Source: a virus. From it: a stretch of DNA of 64,000 nucleotides. Shown here in pieces: positions 43,385-57,577 of this stretch. A program made the translations under genes and the position numbers. The first letter of the stretch is position 1. Every line of letters starts with the position of its first letter. The stretch is taken from the IMG/VR virus record IMGVR_UViG_3300018432_000001, positions 32,001 through 96,000 of that record; one strand, given 5' to 3'. The notes below the pieces were generated by a model that worked only from the letters and a program-made list of their open reading frames with translations, ran no database searches and was not told the DNA's origin.

Positions 43385-45136
43385 ATGACGCTCGACGAAC
43401 TCATCGAGGCGCTGAACGGTCTCGATGCCGAGGAGCGGCTCGCGCGAATCGAGCAGCTCGTCGGCGAAGTCTCTGAAGACGACCTGGCCGCCATCCGCGA
43501 CGCCGCCATCGAAGCCGCGCAGGCCTACATCGACGAAGTTCCCAGCGACGAGGCATCGATCGCCCGCGCTGAGGCCCTCGCCGTGATCCTCGACGCGATC
43601 GACCGGCGCACCGGCGATGCCGAGACCGCAACCGAAGCCACCGAAGCCGAGGAAGCCGACCTCGAAGCCACAGCCGCTCGTGCGGCCTCGGCCGAAGAGG
43701 TGGCCGAGCCCGCCCGCGAAGGCGAACTCGTCGCCGCTGATGGAGCTCCGCAGACCCAGAAGGCGAGTAATCAGATGCCGATCCCGCTGGCCCAGGCTGC
43801 CTCCGTCGCCCCGACGCAGGTGACCGCAGGCGAACGCACCGACCGTGTGAAACACACCGTCGTGGCCGCAGGCGATCTTCCCGACTATCGCGGGGGCACC
43901 GAGCTGCCGGACACCAAGGCGATCGCCGCCGCTGTCCAGGCCGGTATGACCGTCGTCTCCCGCTCCCAGGCCCCGGGCGTGCGCCAGGGCCTGTGCTCCA
44001 TCAAGCGCGAGGCACCCGACCACCTCAACTACACCGGAGCCAGCGACTGGCTCAAGGTCGACGAGGTCACCAACCAGAAGAACCTCCCGGGCAAGTCGCT
44101 CGTCGCCGCTGGCGGATGGTGCGCCCCCTCCGAGGTGCTTTACGACGTTTGTCCAATTCCTGTCTCTAGGGACGGAATGGTCGATTTGCCGACCATCACC
44201 GCGACGCGCGGCGGCGTCAAGTACTCGCGTCGGCCCGACTTCGCCCCGTTCTGGTCCCTTGTGGGCTTCGAACAGACGGAAACGGACGCTATCGCCGGAG
44301 TTGAGAAGCCTTGCTTCGAAATTCCGTGTCCTGATGATTTGTCCGAATGCCGGATGGACATCGAGGGCATCTGCCTCATCCAGCCGCTGCTCACCGAGCG
44401 CGGCTGGCCGGAGAAAGTCGAGGAATTCGTCGAGTACGCGATGCTTGCGCACGCGCACCGCATCAACGCCCGGCGCATCGAGCGCATGGTCGACATGGCC
44501 ACCTGGGCCATCACCGTTCCCGGCCCCGTCCGCAGTCCCGCCGACAACACGCTGCCCTCCACGGGCTACACCGTCGATGACCACGGCCCGGGTGCGTTCG
44601 AATCGCTTCTGAGCGTGCTCGAACTGCAGGTCGAGTTCTTCCGCTACTCCATGCGCCTGAGCCGCACCGCGCTGCTCGAAGGCATGGCGCCGTACTGGTT
44701 GCGGGGCCTGCTCCGTGCCGACATCTCCAAGAAATTGGGGATCGACAACCGCTGGGGCATCGCCACCGACGAGATCCTCGACCGGTGGTTCGCCGACCGA
44801 GGTGTCCGAATTCAGTGGGTTTACGACTGGCAGGACAGTATGTCCGAGCAGGACCCCGCTGCGTTCGGTGGTACGCCTCCGACCAAATGGCCGGAAGAGG
44901 TGTCGATCCTCCTGTGGGAGCCGGGCACGTACTTTGCCCTGCAGCAGGACGTCATCAACCTCACTGGGGTGTATGACCGAATCGACCTGCAGCGCAACAT
45001 CTACACCCGTCTGTTCACCGAAGAGGGATTCGCGGTGTGTGCCCGTTGCGGGCGTTCCATGCTCATCACCATTCCTCTGTGCCCGAACGGACTTTCCGGC
45101 TCGCAGGAGCTCACCGTCTGCTCGACGACCGCGTAA
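43385..45136 (+). CDS. major capsid (hexamer) protein with N-terminal scaffold-like region
   Basis: LVAAGGWCAPSEVLYD, KPCFEIPCP, IQWVYDWQ, LFTEEG as in Rosebush-type capsids. Confidence 0.9.
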   Translation: MTLDELIEALNGLDAEERLARIEQLVGEVSEDDLAAIRDAAIEAAQAYIDEVPSDEASIARAEALAVILDAIDRRTGDAETATEATEAEEADLEATAARAASAEEVAEPAREGELVAADGAPQTQKASNQMPIPLAQAASVAPTQVTAGERTDRVKHTVVAAGDLPDYRGGTELPDTKAIAAAVQAGMTVVSRSQAPGVRQGLCSIKREAPDHLNYTGASDWLKVDEVTNQKNLPGKSLVAAGGWCAPSEVLYDVCPIPVSRDGMVDLPTITATRGGVKYSRRPDFAPFWSLVGFEQTETDAIAGVEKPCFEIPCPDDLSECRMDIEGICLIQPLLTERGWPEKVEEFVEYAMLAHAHRINARRIERMVDMATWAITVPGPVRSPADNTLPSTGYTVDDHGPGAFESLLSVLELQVEFFRYSMRLSRTALLEGMAPYWLRGLLRADISKKLGIDNRWGIATDEILDRWFADRGVRIQWVYDWQDSMSEQDPAAFGGTPPTKWPEEVSILLWEPGTYFALQQDVINLTGVYDRIDLQRNIYTRLFTEEGFAVCARCGRSMLITIPLCPNGLSGSQELTVCSTTA

Positions 45137-46651: not shown

Positions 46652-48181
46652 ATGGCTGAGACTTCTACCGTCCGAGGCCGGATGGCCCGGTTCACGCGCC
46701 TGGACGACATGGGTCGTCCGCTGTACGGACCGGGCAACCAGGCCGTCACCAAGGGCATCATTTCGGTCACCTACACCCCGAACGTCACCGAAGGCGAAGC
46801 CACCTCGGTCACGAACTTCGCGGGCGAACAGTGCATCTCGGCCCCCGCGCCGTGCGCGACCATCGACAACTGGACCGTCGGCGTCGAATTCTGCGCCGTC
46901 GACCCTTGTGTCGTCCTGATGATCTACCCGTCCTGGATTCCGATTTATGACGATTTCGGGTCGATCAAGGGTTTCCAGATCGTCGGCGGCCTGTCGTGCG
47001 ACGTCGGTTTCGCCCTGGAGATCTGGGGCCAGATCGGATCGGCAGGGTCGGCCATCCAGTGCGGACCGGGCGCCGTCTCGGGCTCCACGTACTGGCTCGC
47101 GCCGCGCCTCGTGGGCGCCGCTCCCGGCGAAATCACGATCAGTAACGAAGCGACTTCATTCACGTTCAACGGGACCACCACGAGCCCCGTGGGTTGGCGC
47201 CGTGGCCCGTACCTGGTCGACATCGTCAACGGCGTGCCCTCGGTCCTGCGCGACCCGGTCGACTCGGCCGCGCAGCTCGTGGAGTTCACCACGCAGGTGC
47301 GTCCGCCCGAGCCCACCAACGGCTGCGTGGAGCTGCCGCGACCGGTCCCGGAGGAAGCGAGCGTCATCATCGACCGCGTTCCCACCGACGACACCGGCAT
47401 GTGCGCGCGCTTGATCATCGACAACCATGGATTTGGCCCGGTGACGGTGAACTGGGGCGACGGTTCGGACCCCGAGACCAGCGGCGACTGCTCGACCATC
47501 ACCCACTGCTACGCCACGCCGGGCACCTACACGGTGTGCGTCGCCGACCAGCAGACTCCGGCAATCTCGACCTGCCGCGACATCGTCGTGCCGATGCCTG
47601 CCGACCAGCCGACCATGACGCTGGCCGTCGACCCGACCGACGACATGTGTGTCATCGCCACCATCGACATGCCGCCGCAGTCCGATGGACGCGTCGAAGT
47701 CACCTGGGGCGACGACACTGCCGCGTCCACGGTCGAAATCACGCCGGGCACGCCAGTGGAAGTGCGCCACTGCTACGCCACGCCGGGCGTCTACACCGTC
47801 CGTGCCGTGCGCGTGGAGCAGCCGGACTACTACACCACCGCAACCGTCGTGGTGCCGGTCATCGCCAACCCCATGGTGTCGGCCGCCGTCGACGGCCAGG
47901 TGGTCACGCTGACCGTTGACAACAACGGCAACGGGCTGACCACTGTGGAGTGGGGCGACGGCACCACGACCTCCGGTCCGAACACGGACGGAGGCAACGT
48001 CCAGCACACCTACGCCGCCGACGGCACCTACTCGATCACGGTCACTTCGGTGTCCAACCCACTCTCGACCACCACGGTGCAGGTCACCATCGGTGCCGCT
48101 CCAGGCCTCCAGGCCGGAGTCGATGCCGATGAAGGCGATGTGTCGGGCATGACGGTCGAAGTCACCTGGAACAACGCCTAG
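46652..48181 (+). CDS. major tail (tube) protein with three PKD/Ig domains plus a C-terminal half domain
   Basis: VRGRMARFTRLDD.G, FCAVDP, FALEIW, WRRGPY; three WGD...HxY...GxYT repeats. Confidence 0.85.
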   Translation: MAETSTVRGRMARFTRLDDMGRPLYGPGNQAVTKGIISVTYTPNVTEGEATSVTNFAGEQCISAPAPCATIDNWTVGVEFCAVDPCVVLMIYPSWIPIYDDFGSIKGFQIVGGLSCDVGFALEIWGQIGSAGSAIQCGPGAVSGSTYWLAPRLVGAAPGEITISNEATSFTFNGTTTSPVGWRRGPYLVDIVNGVPSVLRDPVDSAAQLVEFTTQVRPPEPTNGCVELPRPVPEEASVIIDRVPTDDTGMCARLIIDNHGFGPVTVNWGDGSDPETSGDCSTITHCYATPGTYTVCVADQQTPAISTCRDIVVPMPADQPTMTLAVDPTDDMCVIATIDMPPQSDGRVEVTWGDDTAASTVEITPGTPVEVRHCYATPGVYTVRAVRVEQPDYYTTATVVVPVIANPMVSAAVDGQVVTLTVDNNGNGLTTVEWGDGTTTSGPNTDGGNVQHTYAADGTYSITVTSVSNPLSTTTVQVTIGAAPGLQAGVDADEGDVSGMTVEVTWNNA

Positions 48182-48191
48182 GAGGGCTGCC

Positions 48192-49493
48192 ATGACCGTC
48201 ACCATTCAATGGGACGCCGATGCTCCATTGACGGCCCAGCCCGACGCGGGCACCGCAACGAAGGTGTACACGACTGCAGGGCCCGGAACCGTGACCATCA
48301 CCGACGAGGCCATCGGCGGTGACAGCGTCACGCTGGACTACACCGTGCCGCTGGAAATGACCACAGTGGTGCCGACTCCGAACACGGCCGATTCGGCCGG
48401 GACCGCCGAAGAGCGCACCATCTCGGTCGCTGGCGAGGGCTTCCCGGCCAGCATGGCGGGCACCGTGGCCATCGCCACGGGCGTGCCCGGCGCGTTCGGG
48501 ACCACGCTGGTGTCGACCTCGGCCACCACCAACACCGCCGGGATCTTCACCGACGTCGACGTGGTGGTGCCAAGCGATGCTGCCGCCGGTGACTACCACC
48601 TGGAAGTCAGCTTCGGGGCCATCGTGGACCTGTCGGCTGCGATCACGCTCACCAACACCGAGCTCGCTGCGCCGACGTCGCTCGCGTCGCCGTCGCAGAC
48701 CTCGACCACGGTCACCCTGACCTGGGCGGCAGTGACCGACGCCGAAACGTATGTGGTCCGTTCCTCGCCTGCAGGCGCTGGTACTTGGGTCGAGCGTGCC
48801 CCGGTGGCGGTTCTGACCGACACGGTCTCGGCGCTCACCGCGTTGACGAGCTACGACTTCCAGGTCAAGGCGCAGGCCACGGGCTCGACCGATTCGCCGT
48901 GGTCGACCACGCTCACGCAGTCCACGACCGCGCAGCCGGTGCTGGACGCACCGGCGAACCCATCGGCGGGCACGCCGACGACCACGACCATCCCGTTCTC
49001 CTGGGATGCGGTCACCGACGCCGAAACGTACACCGTCGAATGGCGGATCAGCCCGGCCGGAGCCTGGACCGCAATCGACAGCATCGCCACCACCAACACC
49101 ACGGTCAGCGGCCTGGACCCGAATACGACGTACGACCTGCGGGTCAAGGCCGTCGCTGATGGATTCACGGACTCTCCGTTCTCTGCAGTCGTCACCGAGT
49201 CCACCGATTCGCTGGGCACGTTGGCCGCTCCGACCGGTATCGCCAGCCCGTCGCAGACGGCCACGACGATCGACCTCACGTGGGACGCGGTTCCCAATGC
49301 CACCAGCTACGGCATCGAACGGTCGCCTGCGGGGGCCGGGACGTGGGTCGAAGTGCAGACCGCTGGGACGAACGCTGCGACGGTGACCGGCATGGTCGCC
49401 AGCACTTCATATGACTTCCGGATTTCGGCTCGCGCCGCCGGATGGGTCGACTCGGACTGGTCGGCCACGTTCACCCAAGCCACCACCGCTTAA
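48192..49493 (+). CDS. Ig/FN3-array protein (half PKD + Ig + 3 FN3)
   Basis: AGGAGG RBS; three APxx...WxAV...Y...L...TxYD.xVxA repeats. Confidence 0.85.
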   Translation: MTVTIQWDADAPLTAQPDAGTATKVYTTAGPGTVTITDEAIGGDSVTLDYTVPLEMTTVVPTPNTADSAGTAEERTISVAGEGFPASMAGTVAIATGVPGAFGTTLVSTSATTNTAGIFTDVDVVVPSDAAAGDYHLEVSFGAIVDLSAAITLTNTELAAPTSLASPSQTSTTVTLTWAAVTDAETYVVRSSPAGAGTWVERAPVAVLTDTVSALTALTSYDFQVKAQATGSTDSPWSTTLTQSTTAQPVLDAPANPSAGTPTTTTIPFSWDAVTDAETYTVEWRISPAGAWTAIDSIATTNTTVSGLDPNTTYDLRVKAVADGFTDSPFSAVVTESTDSLGTLAAPTGIASPSQTATTIDLTWDAVPNATSYGIERSPAGAGTWVEVQTAGTNAATVTGMVASTSYDFRISARAAGWVDSDWSATFTQATTA

Positions 49494-49511: not shown

Positions 49512-51737
49512 GTGCCTATCGTGTTGCAGCCTGTCGACCAGCTCGCGCACAACGAGCTGGCGCAGCGGCTCGCCTGCTGGGCCAAAGCCGAAGACGGCTT
49601 CACCGACAATGCCCTGATCTACCAGTCCTGCTGTGTCTCCCCCACCGGGCAGACGCTGGGCCGGTGGGTCGTTGACGAAGCGCTGTGCGCCGAGTACGGG
49701 CCGTTCGACTTCACCGCCAACGAAGGCGACGTTATTGTCTGCCCGACGCCGGGTTCGGCCGAGTACACCAACTACTACATCTACGACGACGACGTCCACG
49801 CTATCGACCCGAACACCTGCATCGAGCAGCTGCTCGCGGCGCCGACAGGCCTGAACTCGCCCACGCAGGGACCCACCACCGTGGACCTGGCGTGGGACGC
49901 CGTCCCTGACGCTCAGCGGTACGTCGTCCGCTGGTCTTTGGCTGGTCAGGACGACTGGACGGAGCTGGCGCCCACGTTCCTGCTGACCGCCGAGGTCACG
50001 GGCCTGACCGACGAAACGAGCTACGACTTCCAGGTGCAGGCGATCGCCGTGGGCTTCGTCGACTCGCCGTGGTCGGCCACGCTCACGCAGGCCACCACCT
50101 CGCTGGGGACGCTCGCAGCGCCTACGGGGCTCGCGACCCCATCGGCCACCGGTACCACCATCGACGTCACCTGGAACGCCGTCGACAACGCCACCGGGTA
50201 CACCGTGGAATGGTCGCCCACCGGCGCTGGAACGTGGACTCCGGCGACCACGGCCACGAACTCGTACACGATCACCGGTCTGACCTTGGACACGTCCTAC
50301 GACATCCGCGTCAAGGCGACCGCACCGGGCTGGACCGACTCGCCGTATTCGGCCCAGATCATCGGCTCTACCGAGGCGCAGCTCGCCACTCCGGCGGGGC
50401 TCGCGTCGCCCTCGCAGACCGGCCTGACCGTGAACCTCACGTGGTCGGCGGTCACCGACGCCAACGAGTACGTCGTGCGCTGGTCTCCGGCCGGTGCGGG
50501 CACCTGGACTGAACTGGCGCCAGTAGGCATCACTAGCGCGACGGTGTCCGGTTTGACCGCCTCTACCAGTTACGACTTCCAGGTCAAGGCCCAGGCCGAG
50601 GACTTCGTCGACTCCGCGTGGAGCACCACGCTGACCCAGTCCACGGCGGCTGTCCTGGCGACGCCGGTACTGACGAGCCCATCGCAGACGGACACCACGG
50701 TCGCTTTGACCTGGGGTGCAGTGCCGAATGCGACGTCGTACACCGTGCAGTGGTCGCTGGCGCCGTCCGGTTCCTGGAACGCCATGCCGGACGTGTCGGG
50801 TACCGGGCAGACCGTCACGGGCCTGACCGCTGCCACGTCCTACCGGTTCCGGGTGCTGGCGCACGCTGCCGGTTGGACCGACTCCGCGTGGTCGGCCGAG
50901 CTGACTCAGGCGACCGATGCCGCCCTGGCAGCGCCGACCGGGGTGAACAGCCCATCGCAGACCGCCTCGACGATTGACGTCGCATGGACTGCCGTGGCGG
51001 GCGCGGACGGGTACACCGTCGAATGGTCCCCGGCGGGTGCGGGCACGTGGACGCCTGCGACGAACGCGGACACCACATACACGATCATCGGGCTCGCGGC
51101 CGACACCGCCTACGACATCCGCATCAAGGCCACCGCGACCGGGTTTGCCGACTCGGCGTACTCGACGGTGCTCACGCAGTCGACGCTGGAAGTGCAGCTC
51201 GCTGCACCGACCGGGTTCGCGAGCCCCTCGCAGACCGACACGAGCATCAACACGTCCTGGGACGCCGTTGACGACGCCGAGTCCTACGTCGTGGAGTGGT
51301 CCCCGGCGGGTGCAGGCACGTGGACCCCGGTCCCCGCTGCCACGACTACCCAGGAGATCACGGGTCTCTCAGCCGCCACCAACTACGACCTTCGGGTCAA
51401 GGCGATCGCAGACGACCACATCGACTCGACCTACGCAACGCTCACGCAGGAAACGCATGGGCCGCTGCTCGCGCCGACCGGTCTCGCCAGTCCCTCCCAG
51501 ACGTCGACCACGGTCGACCTCACCTGGAACGCGGCCATCAACGCCGATTTCTACGTCGTGCGCTGGTCGCCTGCGGGGGCCGGGACCTGGACTGAGGAAC
51601 CGCAGGTGTCGGGGACCTCGGACACCGTCTCGGGGTTGACGGCCTCGACTTCATATGACTTCCAAGTCAAAACCATTGCGGACGGTTTCGCCGACTCTGG
51701 CTGGTCCGGCTCGCTTACCCAGTCAACTACCGCCTAG
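49512..51737 (+). CDS. anchor domain + 7 FN3 virion decoration protein
   Basis: GAGGAG RBS; seven ~90-aa FN3 repeats. Confidence 0.85.
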   Translation: MPIVLQPVDQLAHNELAQRLACWAKAEDGFTDNALIYQSCCVSPTGQTLGRWVVDEALCAEYGPFDFTANEGDVIVCPTPGSAEYTNYYIYDDDVHAIDPNTCIEQLLAAPTGLNSPTQGPTTVDLAWDAVPDAQRYVVRWSLAGQDDWTELAPTFLLTAEVTGLTDETSYDFQVQAIAVGFVDSPWSATLTQATTSLGTLAAPTGLATPSATGTTIDVTWNAVDNATGYTVEWSPTGAGTWTPATTATNSYTITGLTLDTSYDIRVKATAPGWTDSPYSAQIIGSTEAQLATPAGLASPSQTGLTVNLTWSAVTDANEYVVRWSPAGAGTWTELAPVGITSATVSGLTASTSYDFQVKAQAEDFVDSAWSTTLTQSTAAVLATPVLTSPSQTDTTVALTWGAVPNATSYTVQWSLAPSGSWNAMPDVSGTGQTVTGLTAATSYRFRVLAHAAGWTDSAWSAELTQATDAALAAPTGVNSPSQTASTIDVAWTAVAGADGYTVEWSPAGAGTWTPATNADTTYTIIGLAADTAYDIRIKATATGFADSAYSTVLTQSTLEVQLAAPTGFASPSQTDTSINTSWDAVDDAESYVVEWSPAGAGTWTPVPAATTTQEITGLSAATNYDLRVKAIADDHIDSTYATLTQETHGPLLAPTGLASPSQTSTTVDLTWNAAINADFYVVRWSPAGAGTWTEEPQVSGTSDTVSGLTASTSYDFQVKTIADGFADSGWSGSLTQSTTA

Positions 51738-51750
51738 TTAGGAGATAGCC

Positions 51751-52638
51751 ATGCCTATCGTGCTCCAGCCGATCGATCAGATCGCTAAAAAGGAGTTGGC
51801 TCAGCAGCTGGCCTGCTGGGCGCGGGCCGCCAACGGCCTGACCGACGTCGCCGTCCAGTACGGTACCTGCTGCGTCTCGCCGACCGGCGAGACGTTGGGG
51901 CGTTGGACGATCCCCAACGACCTCTGCACCACGTACGGTGAGCTTCCGTTCACCGGAAATAACGGGGAGACGATCGTCTGCCCGCCCGTCGGGTCGGCCG
52001 AGTACGTCTCGTACTACATCTACGACGAAGACGTCGACCCGATCGACGTGGACACCTGCACGCCGCTGGTGGCGCTCGATGCGCCGACTGCGCTCGCGGC
52101 CGGGACCCCGACCGACACCACCATCCCGCTGACCTGGGTCGCCTCGGCGAACGCCAACGGATACACGGTGTCGTACTCCTCGGACTCGGGCACGACCTGG
52201 CTGGAGGTACAGGCCACCGGCAGCCCGTTCACGCTGACGGGGCTGACGCCGGAGACGACGTACACCATCCGCATCCGCGCGACCGACTCGACGAATACGT
52301 TCGCGAAGTCGCCGTGGACGAGCACGGTCACCGCCACCACGGAGTCTTCGCTGCCTGAGCTGGACGTCCCAGAGAACCTGGCGACCGGTACTCCAGCGGC
52401 GACCGAGATGCCGCTGACCTGGGATGCGGTCACGAACGCCGTGTCGTACCACGTCCAGTACAAGACGACGGCATCGTCGACGTGGCTGGACTTCGCGACC
52501 GAGCCGGTCACGCCGTCGACCACGGTCACGGGCCTGGTGACCGCAACCAGCTACGACTTCCGGGTGCGCGCCAACGCCGACGACATCTCGTTCTCGGACT
52601 CGGACTACAGCGCGCCGGTCACCGAGACCACCGCGTAA
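51751..52638 (+). CDS. anchor domain + 2 FN3 virion decoration protein
   Basis: N-terminal ~105 aa closely matches 49512 gene; two FN3. Confidence 0.85.
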   Translation: MPIVLQPIDQIAKKELAQQLACWARAANGLTDVAVQYGTCCVSPTGETLGRWTIPNDLCTTYGELPFTGNNGETIVCPPVGSAEYVSYYIYDEDVDPIDVDTCTPLVALDAPTALAAGTPTDTTIPLTWVASANANGYTVSYSSDSGTTWLEVQATGSPFTLTGLTPETTYTIRIRATDSTNTFAKSPWTSTVTATTESSLPELDVPENLATGTPAATEMPLTWDAVTNAVSYHVQYKTTASSTWLDFATEPVTPSTTVTGLVTATSYDFRVRANADDISFSDSDYSAPVTETTA

Positions 52639-52721: not shown

Positions 52722-53474
52722 ATGCCGAGTATCAAGTGGTACCCGGACCGTACGGTACCGCGCAAGGGCAAGGCCCGCGTCATCGATGTGCCGCAGGCGT
52801 ACACGCTGTCCTTCGGGGATGGCAACACGATCGCGAAGGACGCCGACGACGTCTACCCGTACACCTATGCGGCGGCAGGCCCGTACGCGTTGAACGTGAC
52901 GCTGGTCGGCGAGACCGAACCGGCGGCGTCGCTGCTGCTGAACGTGCTGGACGCAACGGTCCCGAACGTGACTATCTCGGCTCCGGCCAACACGCAGAAG
53001 ATCCGGGTGGCGTTCAACGACCCCGAGATGCCCGTCGTGGGCCGCTACACGGTGGACTGGACGTCGACGGAGAGCGAAGATGTGCTCGCCGAGCCGGACA
53101 AGTACGTGGAGCGGCTCTTCGCGCCGGGCACGTATCCGATCCGGGTCACCGACCACTGGTCGGGACTGTCGGTGGTGCAAGACGTGGTGGTGGCGGCGGT
53201 GGCTGACGATCCGGGTTTTAGCCTCGCCGAGGACACGTCCGATGTCTCGCGGATGACAGCAGAGCTCGAAGTGCTCGCGGTTCCCTCGGCAGAACCCGAA
53301 GAGACTCTCACCGTCGACTGGGGCGATGGCCAAACCGAGACGCTCGCCGCCATCGTGGGCACAACGGCCTCACATGCTTACGCCTATGACGATGAGTACA
53401 TGGTGGAGCTCGCGTACACCGCTGAGCCCGCGAAGAACACCACGCAGTTCGTGTGGCTGCCGTTCACGGATTAG
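52722..53474 (+). CDS. PKD-domain protein (3 Ig-like domains)
   Basis: FGDG..YTY..AGPY; VDW..PGTY; VDWGDG..SHAY; GGAGG RBS. Confidence 0.8.
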   Translation: MPSIKWYPDRTVPRKGKARVIDVPQAYTLSFGDGNTIAKDADDVYPYTYAAAGPYALNVTLVGETEPAASLLLNVLDATVPNVTISAPANTQKIRVAFNDPEMPVVGRYTVDWTSTESEDVLAEPDKYVERLFAPGTYPIRVTDHWSGLSVVQDVVVAAVADDPGFSLAEDTSDVSRMTAELEVLAVPSAEPEETLTVDWGDGQTETLAAIVGTTASHAYAYDDEYMVELAYTAEPAKNTTQFVWLPFTD

Positions 53475-55372: not shown

Positions 55373-56212
55373 ATGCCGGTCATCAACGTCGCGCCGACCG
55401 TCGCGGACGGTGAGGGAAACGCGCTGTACCCGTGCGAGCCGTGGCCGATCAACCCTGTGTGCTGCCCAGGGTGGCCTGCCGACCCGGCCGAGTGGGACCC
55501 CGCGCATTATGACGCTCAGTGGCTGGCCACGGTCGAGCTCTGGCGCGCGGTCGCCGGAGTCATCGGGCTGTGCCGGACCACTGAGCTGCCGTGTCTGGAC
55601 CAGTGCGTGGCGCGCCCGCTGGAGGCGTACTGGATGCGTCCCTACCGGGACGTCAACGGCGCCTGGTTCAACTCCAAGTGCGGATGCCGCGATACGTGCT
55701 CGTGCTCGCAGCTGTGCACGGTAACCCTCCAGGGGCCGGTGTACTCGATTGAGTCGGTCACCGTCGACGGCGTCGCCCTGGAGAGCGATGAGTGGAAGCT
55801 GCTCACCAACAACCGGCTCGCCCGCTGCGGCGGATGCTGGCCCGCCTGCCAGGACTACTGCACCGAGGACGGTCTCGTCGTCACCTACCTGCGCGGCATT
55901 CCGCCAGGCCTGGACGCCATCCGCGCCGTCAGCATCCTCGCCTGCCGCCGACTCCAAGAATGCCCACCAAGTGGCGGCGACTGCGGCACACTGCCCTCCG
56001 GCGTCACCAGCATCAACCGTGAAGGGCTGAACATGCAGCTGGACTCGACCATCGGGGCCGGGGAAGACGGCGTCATCCACTTCACCGGCATCGCCCGGGT
56101 TGATCGATGGATCGCTTCGATCAACCCCTACGGCGTCACCTCGAACCCATCCGTGTGGTCGCCCGACGTCGACACCTCGCAGGTCTGGCGCACCGGCACG
56201 GTGACGCCATGA
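55373..56212 (+). CDS. head-to-tail adaptor
   Basis: PCEPWP, GAWFN..CGC...CSC, LQGPVYSIESVTVDG, WPACQD, LPSGVTSINREG, TGIARVDRWI..INP. Confidence 0.8.
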   Translation: MPVINVAPTVADGEGNALYPCEPWPINPVCCPGWPADPAEWDPAHYDAQWLATVELWRAVAGVIGLCRTTELPCLDQCVARPLEAYWMRPYRDVNGAWFNSKCGCRDTCSCSQLCTVTLQGPVYSIESVTVDGVALESDEWKLLTNNRLARCGGCWPACQDYCTEDGLVVTYLRGIPPGLDAIRAVSILACRRLQECPPSGGDCGTLPSGVTSINREGLNMQLDSTIGAGEDGVIHFTGIARVDRWIASINPYGVTSNPSVWSPDVDTSQVWRTGTVTP

Positions 56213-56433
56213 TCCCGTTGATCGTGAGTCTGGTCTACACCGTTGCCATGCTGTTCACCGCACGCATGCTCTACCGCAACGCCGTCACCAGCGGCTTCGA
56301 CGTCACCACTCCCGCGCGCCTATTCATGGGCGTCGGCTTCGCCCTGATCTATGCGCTGGCATGGCCGCTGCTGCTGCTGGGCATCGGGGCGGTGCGTTTC
56401 ATCGTGCACCGCGCCAAGGGAGACGTCGCGTGA
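56209..56433 (+). CDS. small two-TM membrane protein
   Basis: ATGA/GTGA overlaps on both sides; two hydrophobic helices. Confidence 0.65.
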   Translation: MIPLIVSLVYTVAMLFTARMLYRNAVTSGFDVTTPARLFMGVGFALIYALAWPLLLLGIGAVRFIVHRAKGDVA

Positions 56434-57095
56434 ACGTCCTGGACTACCTCGAAGACGAGCTGCTGTCGTGCCTGTGCTCGATGCTGCGCACCGAAGGGCG
56501 TCCAGCTTGCGAGTGCCATCACTTCGGCGGTGACGTGCCGCCAGTCGGGGACCGCTGCCAAGCCAACACTGCCGGAGAGAACGGTCAAGTCTGGGTTCGC
56601 CGCATCTCGCAGGCGATCGAGGTCGATCCCGAAGACATCACGTTCGGTGGCCTCCCGTGCGCGAGTTCCTGGCAGGCGCAGATCGAGCTGGGCATCTACC
56701 GGTGCATCACCGCCATCCCCGACGACAACGGGAATGCACCATCACCGGCGGCCTACGACGCCGACCGGGATCTGCTCGTCGCTGATCGGGCGACCCTCGC
56801 GCAGGTGCTGTGCTGCTGGCCACTGGTCGGTGAGGCGCCCACTCCGGTGCCCTTCGACCTGCCTATCTCGGTGATCGCGGCGCAGATCCTGCCACTGGGG
56901 CCCACCGGAGGGTGTGCCGGTTCGATCTTGACGCTCGTTGTCAACGCGCCGCTCATCGTCGAAGAGCCCGTGGCGCAGCTGGTCGCCGGTGTCGATGCCG
57001 ATCCTGCCGACCCGAGTGGTCAGACCGCCGTGGTCACCTGGCGAAACGAACCTGCGGAGGAGGTCTTCATTTCGCGTCCAGCCGGAGGTGGTTAA
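56430..57095 (+). CDS. tail terminator/neck-like protein with C-terminal half-PKD tag
   Basis: GQVWVR, ELGIYRC, PLGPTGGCAG; tail LVAGVDADPADPSGQTAVVTWRN. Confidence 0.7.
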   Translation: MNVLDYLEDELLSCLCSMLRTEGRPACECHHFGGDVPPVGDRCQANTAGENGQVWVRRISQAIEVDPEDITFGGLPCASSWQAQIELGIYRCITAIPDDNGNAPSPAAYDADRDLLVADRATLAQVLCCWPLVGEAPTPVPFDLPISVIAAQILPLGPTGGCAGSILTLVVNAPLIVEEPVAQLVAGVDADPADPSGQTAVVTWRNEPAEEVFISRPAGGG

Positions 57096-57577
57096 TGGTC
57101 ATCCGGTTGCGCGTAACGCGCGTCGACATCAACATGGCCGAAGCCAACCGGTTGCTGAACTCTCCGCAGGGCGAAGTGGCGTCGTTGGTGGTGCTGACGT
57201 CGCAGCGGGTGCGGGCGATGTGCGTGCAGCAGACCCCTGTGCAGGACGGCGACATGAAGGCCAGCTACGGGTTCGCGCTGCGTGTGCGGCCCTTCCGGTA
57301 CATCATGGGCCGCGTTATGAACTTCGACGAGGCGGCGCTGTGGGTGCAGATCGGCACCGGGATCTATGGCAAACGGGGACGACCGATCACGCCGAACACG
57401 AAGCGGTTCCTGCGGTTCGAAGGCAAACGAGATGGTGCGCTGCTGTATCGGCGGTCGGTGAAAGGACAACCGGCAAACCCGTTCATGTTGCGTGGCCTGA
57501 TCAGGGGGACGTCGGGGCGCCAGCGGTGGGTGATCACGCCCGGTTCGGGGGTGCGGAACATCGGGTCGGGACCGTGA
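57095..57577 (+). CDS. HK97 gp10-like neck/tail completion protein
   Basis: TPVQDG.MKAS...ALWVQIGTG...LRF...VKGQPANPFM. Confidence 0.75.
   Translation: MVIRLRVTRVDINMAEANRLLNSPQGEVASLVVLTSQRVRAMCVQQTPVQDGDMKASYGFALRVRPFRYIMGRVMNFDEAALWVQIGTGIYGKRGRPITPNTKRFLRFEGKRDGALLYRRSVKGQPANPFMLRGLIRGTSGRQRWVITPGSGVRNIGSGP

Follow-up and report, generated by a model that had tools for sequence, protein, structure and literature searches.

Why does the closing segment of a tail tube protein recur within an unrelated tail protein of the same phage? The question is raised by a 23-residue motif (referred to here as the tag) that occurs twice in the window, the whole stretch of 64,000 nucleotides analysed, which corresponds to bases 32001-96000 of one 142,477-bp contig and has a G+C content of 65.8%. 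Relatives of this genome are metagenome contigs of 90-140 kb, and a metagenome scan contributed only two further informative loci (L022 and L023). In a tblastn search, residues 3-316 of the tube protein matched annotated major tail proteins of Arthrobacter, Microbacterium, Gordonia and Mycobacterium phages at less than 37% identity. Since the tube domain is the only part of the tail protein with cultured relatives and all of these are actinophages, the source phage is, to judge from its sequence, an uncultured actinophage, and soil Actinomycetota are its probable hosts. The terminator and the catcher protein described below gave no tblastn matches among 50,697 phage records, and a 12-kb region gave no megablast matches. 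That collection contains no cultured relative with this system.

The right part of the window contains a siphophage structural module. The capsid protein is encoded at 43385-45136 (phrog_777) and is adjoined by the gene for the major tail (tube) protein (46652-48181, plus strand), which is located apart from the terminator block. The 509-aa tube protein matches phrog_792 over residues 1-367 (E = 3e-55) and Pfam PKD (50.9 bits). The next gene (48192-49493, plus strand) encodes a 433-aa FN3 protein (fn3, 73.8 bits), which is referred to here as the catcher. Further FN3 and PKD proteins, followed by a fibre, are encoded between the catcher gene and the adaptor gene. Two of these (49512-51737 and 51751-52638) are FN3-array proteins sharing an N-terminal domain of about 110 residues that is unrelated to the catcher half; their way of attaching to the virion is presumably a different one. 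A 250-aa protein of PKD-like repeats (52722-53474; Pfam PKD_4, 28.6 bits) has no PHROG family; several relatives (L009, L010 and L011) lack it or have a replacement. The terminator gene belongs to the head-tail joining block and precedes the chaperones and the tape measure. The gene order of this block is head-tail adaptor (55373-56212, phrog_783), a small gene, tail terminator (56430-57095, plus strand, phrog_810), a 160-aa gene (57095-57577, plus strand), two chaperone-sized genes and a 1262-aa tape measure. The small gene between adaptor and terminator (56209-56433, 74 aa) keeps its position in the relatives and gave no family match. A longer open reading frame from 56107, lying over this gene, looks membrane-like, which would be odd in a neck module.

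Tag 1 (48107-48175, plus strand) corresponds to strands A-B of a fourth tube-protein PKD repeat and is followed by one alanine and the TAG stop codon. Tag 2 (56976-57044, plus strand), also called site B, is the 23-residue core of an insert of about 27 residues in the reading frame ending at 57095. The initial annotation had drawn attention to the resemblance of this segment to the tube-protein end, and the resemblance is borne out: 15/23 residues are identical without gaps (BLASTP E = 5e-5 for the pair), and the matching part of the tail protein is its final 24 residues. At the DNA level, 44/69 nucleotides (64%) are identical, a value too low for a recent duplication, and the copy is thus old. 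A 23-position tag profile was run over the 142,477-bp genome, translated in six frames, and over the loci of the relatives. True copies scored 32-55 bits and everything else 8 bits or less. Exactly two copies were found in the genome, at the end of the tube protein and in the terminator, and the search of genome and loci gave two copies per tag-bearing genome. Tag 1 is present in 12/12 relatives whose contigs contain the tube-protein end. A search of 1.84 billion representative proteins returned six matches; the tag family is either rare, or the tag is too short for the profile to reach further.

The identity of the tag was examined through the tube protein and its neighbour. The tube protein consists of a tube domain, three complete PKD repeats and the orphan tag. 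The catcher begins with a half PKD (48192-48353, strands C-G), which precedes one Ig-like domain and three FN3 domains, and its gene has its own GGAGG ribosome-binding site and ATG. A catcher profile search detected one such gene per genome. Within the first 160 catcher residues, conservation is highest over residues 1-54. An 85-position profile of the PKD repeat was built from 33 distinct complete repeats of the tube proteins of the group. The catcher N-terminus maps to positions 30-82 of this profile (E = 1.6e-7 for a search space of one), and the tags map to approximately positions 5-28, each scoring by itself just 3-4 bits and being too short for significance. By beginning at position 30, the catcher is a partner that lacks exactly the strands that the tag supplies. 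In L001 and L008, where natural in-frame read-through translations of the two halves can be made, these align to the profile as one domain over positions 8-82 (E values from 4e-8 to 6.5e-9, again for a search space of one).

A structural model of the L001 read-through piece (87 aa), which covers tag 1 and not tag 2, is a seven-strand sandwich (pLDDT 83, pTM 0.75); the alignment used contained complete repeats, which favours a sandwich. The model matches PKD domains (PrtV, Epp, SorCS2, polycystin-1 and ColG) and FN3 domains alike, with TM scores of 0.55-0.65 over approximately the full length. The PKD matches (4l9d, 6aem, 1wgo and 1b4r) are among the top ones at weak E values of 0.008-0.06, and FN3 domains score alike. 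The piece was not called PKD by Pfam (PF00801/PF18911), the best match being Big_3_5 (E = 0.13). The label “half PKD” therefore draws on the predicted fold and on homology to the repeats of the phage itself, and not on a Pfam match. The 23-residue motif is read as the A-B beta-hairpin of a PKD/Ig-like sandwich.

The catcher is apparently translated separately from the tube protein. Between the tube stop codon and the catcher ATG, the window, L002, L003 and L011 have a spacer of 10 nt, L001 and L008 one of 9 nt (which places the catcher in frame behind a single TAG) and L006, L007 and L009 one of 14 nt. In L022, a tandem TAG TAA is followed by the ribosome-binding site and ATG of the catcher. 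All three frame relations thus occur among close relatives, and conservation extends to the tag, to the ribosome-binding site and ATG of the catcher gene and to catcher residues 1-54. Neither a conserved frame relation nor a slippery site was found at the junction in the window and its relatives. With spacers of 9, 10 or 14 nt, or tandem stops, programmed frameshifting or read-through cannot be the general route to a complete domain, and frameshifting, read-through and hopping were rejected because of the variable spacer. A 143-aa database fragment with no contig on record (P0043) carries a Tyr codon in place of the tube stop, with the catcher in frame; it represents either a natural tube-catcher fusion or a sequencing error.

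The protein carrying tag 2 has a predicted tail-terminator fold. The reading frame had initially been drawn from 56361, but the GTG at 56430, which overlaps the upstream stop codon and agrees with all homologues, is the likelier start; it is probably the true one and gives a protein of 221 aa. An AlphaFold2 model of this protein, made from a 41-sequence alignment, has a pLDDT of 79.8 and a pTM of 0.71. It contains a helix, strands, a second helix and a long beta-hairpin (residues 147-159 and 162-174). Tag 2 forms a separate modelled beta-hairpin (strands 184-190 and 200-206) that lies beyond the phrog_810 core, which ends near residue 172. A Foldseek search against the PDB returned tail terminators almost exclusively, with probabilities of about 1.0, E values from 2e-5 to 1.6e-3 and modest TM scores of 0.3-0.5. 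The matches include the P74-26 neck, Mu, lambda gpU (crystals and tail; 3fz2, 3fzb and 8iyd), T5 p142, T4 gp15 and pyocin collars. The product of 56430-57095 is therefore supported, at the level of a predicted model, as a lambda gpU-type tail-terminator fold, and the “terminator-like” label of the initial annotation is upheld by this model (pLDDT 80) and its matches to the lambda gpU, Mu, T5 p142 and P74-26 terminators. The downstream neck/tail gene, which shares a TAATG overlap with the terminator stop codon, had been called gp10-like; its 160-aa product has no significant Pfam, PHROG or PDB-sequence match that would support that name. The accompanying statement that this gene carries no complementary half agrees with the catcher profile, which matches the 48192 gene alone in the genome.

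The terminator family also contains ten invariant or near-invariant cysteines and two histidines (56430-56830), some of them in a CC-W-P motif and others, close to the N-terminus, in a C-x-C ... C-x-C-H-H cluster. Such a pattern is unusual in terminators and suggests metal binding or disulfides. The adaptor (55373-56212) is likewise cysteine-rich.

Tag 2 was described at first as a tag appended to the end of a second, unrelated tail protein. The presence of the motif in the terminator stands, but it is not an appendage. Fourteen residues follow tag 2, and the last nine form a C-terminal motif (57066-57092, plus strand) that is near-invariant in tag-bearing and tagless homologues among the 41 members of the family (S215, P217, A218 and G219 are invariant or nearly so). 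As this motif lies C-terminal to the tag and is kept with or without it, the tag is an internal insert. In the alignment, it is an insert of about 27 residues between the end of the phrog_810 core and the C-terminal tail. The frameshift fusion that the initial annotation had excluded for the terminator copy fails for this reason as well: the tag is internal, and the partner half is absent downstream.

The tag is found at two alternative sites in the terminator family. The site-B insert is present in 17/40 homologues, and 22/40 have no tag at all. Three independent samples yielded L006, L007 and P0031, in which the tag lies about 45 residues upstream, directly after the CCWP motif (site A), and this clade has no site-B insert. 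In window numbering, residues 138 and 139 flank site A and residues 183 and 184 flank site B; these positions are 8-9 residues before and after the strands of one beta-hairpin (147-159 and 162-174). Because they flank the strands of a single hairpin, the two sites should be close in space in the model, both emerging at one spot. On a terminator tree built with the insert columns removed, the distribution of the states “none”, “A” and “B” requires six changes or more. On this tree, site B is found on deep branches and was lost several times, and site A arose inside a B-less clade. The genomes L008, L009 and L010 have a tube tag and a catcher together with a tagless terminator, and tag 2 is therefore dispensable. 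Two tagless proteins (P0026 and P0027), which are most closely related to the site-A form, carry five inserted residues at site A that may be the remnant of a deleted tag.

Several comparative observations connect the terminator tag with the catcher. Pairwise Nei-Gojobori dN/dS is the same, at 0.17, for tag 2 and the terminator core (50 codons); tag 1 has a value of 0.27 and the N-half of the catcher one of 0.15. Tag 2 is thus under purifying selection. In L022, the terminator is 46% identical to that of the window and the tube protein has two tandem tags. The terminator tag of this genome is identical to its own first tube tag at 17/23 positions and to the tag of any other genome at 11/23 or fewer, a same-genome match that could also be explained by gene conversion. 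Among the closer relatives, three genomes have G at position 4 of both tags, three have S at this position of both and one has V; within the close clade, the similarity of tags from the same genome is not significantly above that of tags from different genomes (permutation test, 1536/20000).

The initial annotation had proposed a profile of the tag and a search for its co-occurrence with the catcher half, and had regarded a tag in relatives lacking a catcher-bearing gene as evidence against docking. The catcher is present in 10/10 evaluable distinct genomes with a terminator tag (the window, L001, L002, L003, L006/L007, L011-L014 and L022), and no terminator tag without a catcher was seen among evaluable loci. 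The tube tag is also present in these genomes wherever the tube-protein end is on the contig, the end being off the contig in L014. In L023, whose terminator is 34% identical to that of the window, the tube protein ends in a complete PKD repeat, and the catcher, the tube tag and the terminator tag are all absent. Two insertion sites, purifying selection, the self-match in L022, the co-occurrence and the variable junction frame together give comparative support to the earlier idea of a portable docking tag that would bind the catcher by trans-complementation.

The reading that we consider probable is that a docking hairpin on both the tube and the terminator recruits one catcher by sandwich completion. 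On this reading, the fourth PKD repeat of the tube protein is split, with strands A-B ending the tube protein and strands C-G beginning the separately translated 433-aa protein. The terminator, a predicted gpU-fold ring capping the tube, has acquired the same hairpin as an insertion in a surface linker. The N-domain of the catcher, itself half a PKD domain, most likely docks on either hairpin and completes its own sandwich, and the FN3 arms would thereby decorate the tube rings and the terminator ring. We infer both the mutual binding of hairpin and half-domain and the common partner of the two hairpins from sequence comparison. The same data might also be read as a structural role of the hairpin in both ring proteins without the catcher, for example in pairing neighbouring subunits or tube PKD domains and bracing the tail exterior; the catcher half would then be completed by the tube tag only, aided by coupled translation of the adjacent genes. 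The tube protein and the terminator stack in known tails and form hexamers, tandem orphan tags occur without extra catcher genes in L022, L015 and L016, and tags 1 and 2 differ at 8/23 positions, all of which would suit such a role. It leaves unexplained, however, why the catcher misses exactly the strands supplied by the tag, why the terminator tag is absent in the sole catcher-less lineage (L023) and why the L022 terminator tag resembles its own tube tag, and we regard it as rather unlikely.

Tag 2 might instead be neutral and functionless, a passenger derived from the tube gene that illegitimate recombination or gene conversion copied into a tolerant terminator linker. Its repeated loss and its position in a variable, acidic linker are what would be expected of a passenger, but its dN/dS equals that of the protein core (0.17), terminators as far apart as 46% identity (L022) keep it, a second acquisition took place at a different site, and the two tag DNAs, just 64% identical, indicate an old copy; this explanation is very improbable. 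Still more doubtful is that frameshifting, read-through or hopping joins the two halves during translation, as happens in known Ig extensions, with the terminator copy as an unrelated coincidence. The fused P0043 gene, in which a Tyr codon replaces the stop, and the single TAG before an in-frame catcher in L001 and L008 are compatible with it. Against this, the frame varies in close relatives (9, 10 and 14 nt, and TAG TAA in L022), a slippery site is absent, a ribosome-binding site and ATG are conserved, and the internal terminator tag leaves nothing to fuse. We therefore hardly credit joining by translation and keep to docking of the catcher on both hairpins as the preferred reading.

Docking of the catcher on a hairpin would have parallels in several known systems. 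Ig-like and FN3 extensions of phage tail and head proteins reportedly arise by programmed frameshifting, as Fraser et al. are said to have described in 2006, and the extension of the TP901-1/Tuc2009 MTP and SPP1 gp17.1* are said to be examples. As in those phages, an Ig-like decoration along a siphophage tail tube is encoded directly after the tube gene. Here, in contrast, the decoration is a separate protein, the junction has neither a conserved frame nor a slippery site, and translational fusion is impossible for the terminator copy. In chaperone-usher and type V pili, donor-strand complementation likewise completes an incomplete Ig-like fold with strands from another polypeptide. Pilins lack the last strand and take an N-terminal extension, whereas in the catcher the first two strands are missing and would be supplied as a hairpin; a chaperone, an usher and a polymer are all absent here.

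The closest likeness is found in the baseplate tripod of the Lactococcus phage Tuc2009, in whose solved structure BppU contributes a C-terminal hairpin of 25 residues to a sheet of BppA domain 2 and so completes it; the composite domain is titin-Ig-like (PMC4742702). In both cases, a beta-hairpin of about 25 residues lies on a tail structural protein outside its core fold, and its partner is (in Tuc2009) or would be (here) the sandwich of a separate accessory protein. Tuc2009 has one hairpin on one baseplate protein, whereas here the tube protein and the terminator carry the tag, the latter at two alternative sites, and tandem copies occur in relatives. The partner in Tuc2009 is a carbohydrate-binding protein of the baseplate, whereas the candidate partner here carries FN3 arms. 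Folds divided between adjacent tail genes have also been described: the HDII-insertion domain is distributed over two such genes in lambda gpL/gpJ and RcGTA gp13/gp15 (PMC10721106), and a fold is divided between nozzle-rope and nozzle-base in A1002 (PMC13730344). These resemble the tube-catcher pair in that one half of a fold ends a tail gene, the other half starts another and the fold is rebuilt in the virion. They are, however, fixed one-to-one tip or nozzle partnerships, and in none of them is the donor half also present in another, unrelated protein. A literature search found no description of donor-hairpin portability, i.e., two unrelated ring proteins, alternative sites, repeated gain and loss, and tandem copies.

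Other split domains are present in the wider group. Two of the six protein matches of the tag profile, P0044 (L015) and P0045 (L016), are small proteins that begin with the last PKD strands. At both loci (L015:3-1576 and L016:3-1638), the upstream open reading frame stops just after a Trp-Gly-Asp motif, ending with the first three PKD strands. The two small proteins continue with one complete repeat and then two tandem orphan tags, and a catcher-type gene is next; the 188-aa protein at L015/L016 is the one that ends in the two tandem orphan tags. The tube protein encoded at L022:5134-6900 is the one with two tandem orphan tags in that genome. As L015 and L016 show a second kind of split PKD, split Ig domains, as assigned by sequence comparison, recur at gene borders in this phage group and differ in their cut points. 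A bolder version of the docking proposal, which we put forward tentatively and do not favour at present, is that the hairpin is a mobile general docking module, a split-PKD tag/catcher pair copied into any virion protein to be decorated, with tandem copies setting the number of arms. As suggested by L015 and L016, chains of tube, small linker and arm would then be assembled only by split-Ig completion from one gene border to the next.

The Tuc2009 BppU-BppA structure already demonstrates the principle, which is therefore not new; the value of the present system is in its portability, in the comparative evidence and in a family of uncultured actinophages of about 140 kb. If the proposed docking is true, the tag and the half-domain would be a small, non-covalent and genetically encodable pair from nature, and the repeated gain, loss and re-siting of the terminator tag would be a natural experiment on modularity. 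If the hairpin truly recruits the FN3 protein, decoration in these phages would be re-addressed on the virion by moving about 25 residues, with no new interface having to evolve.
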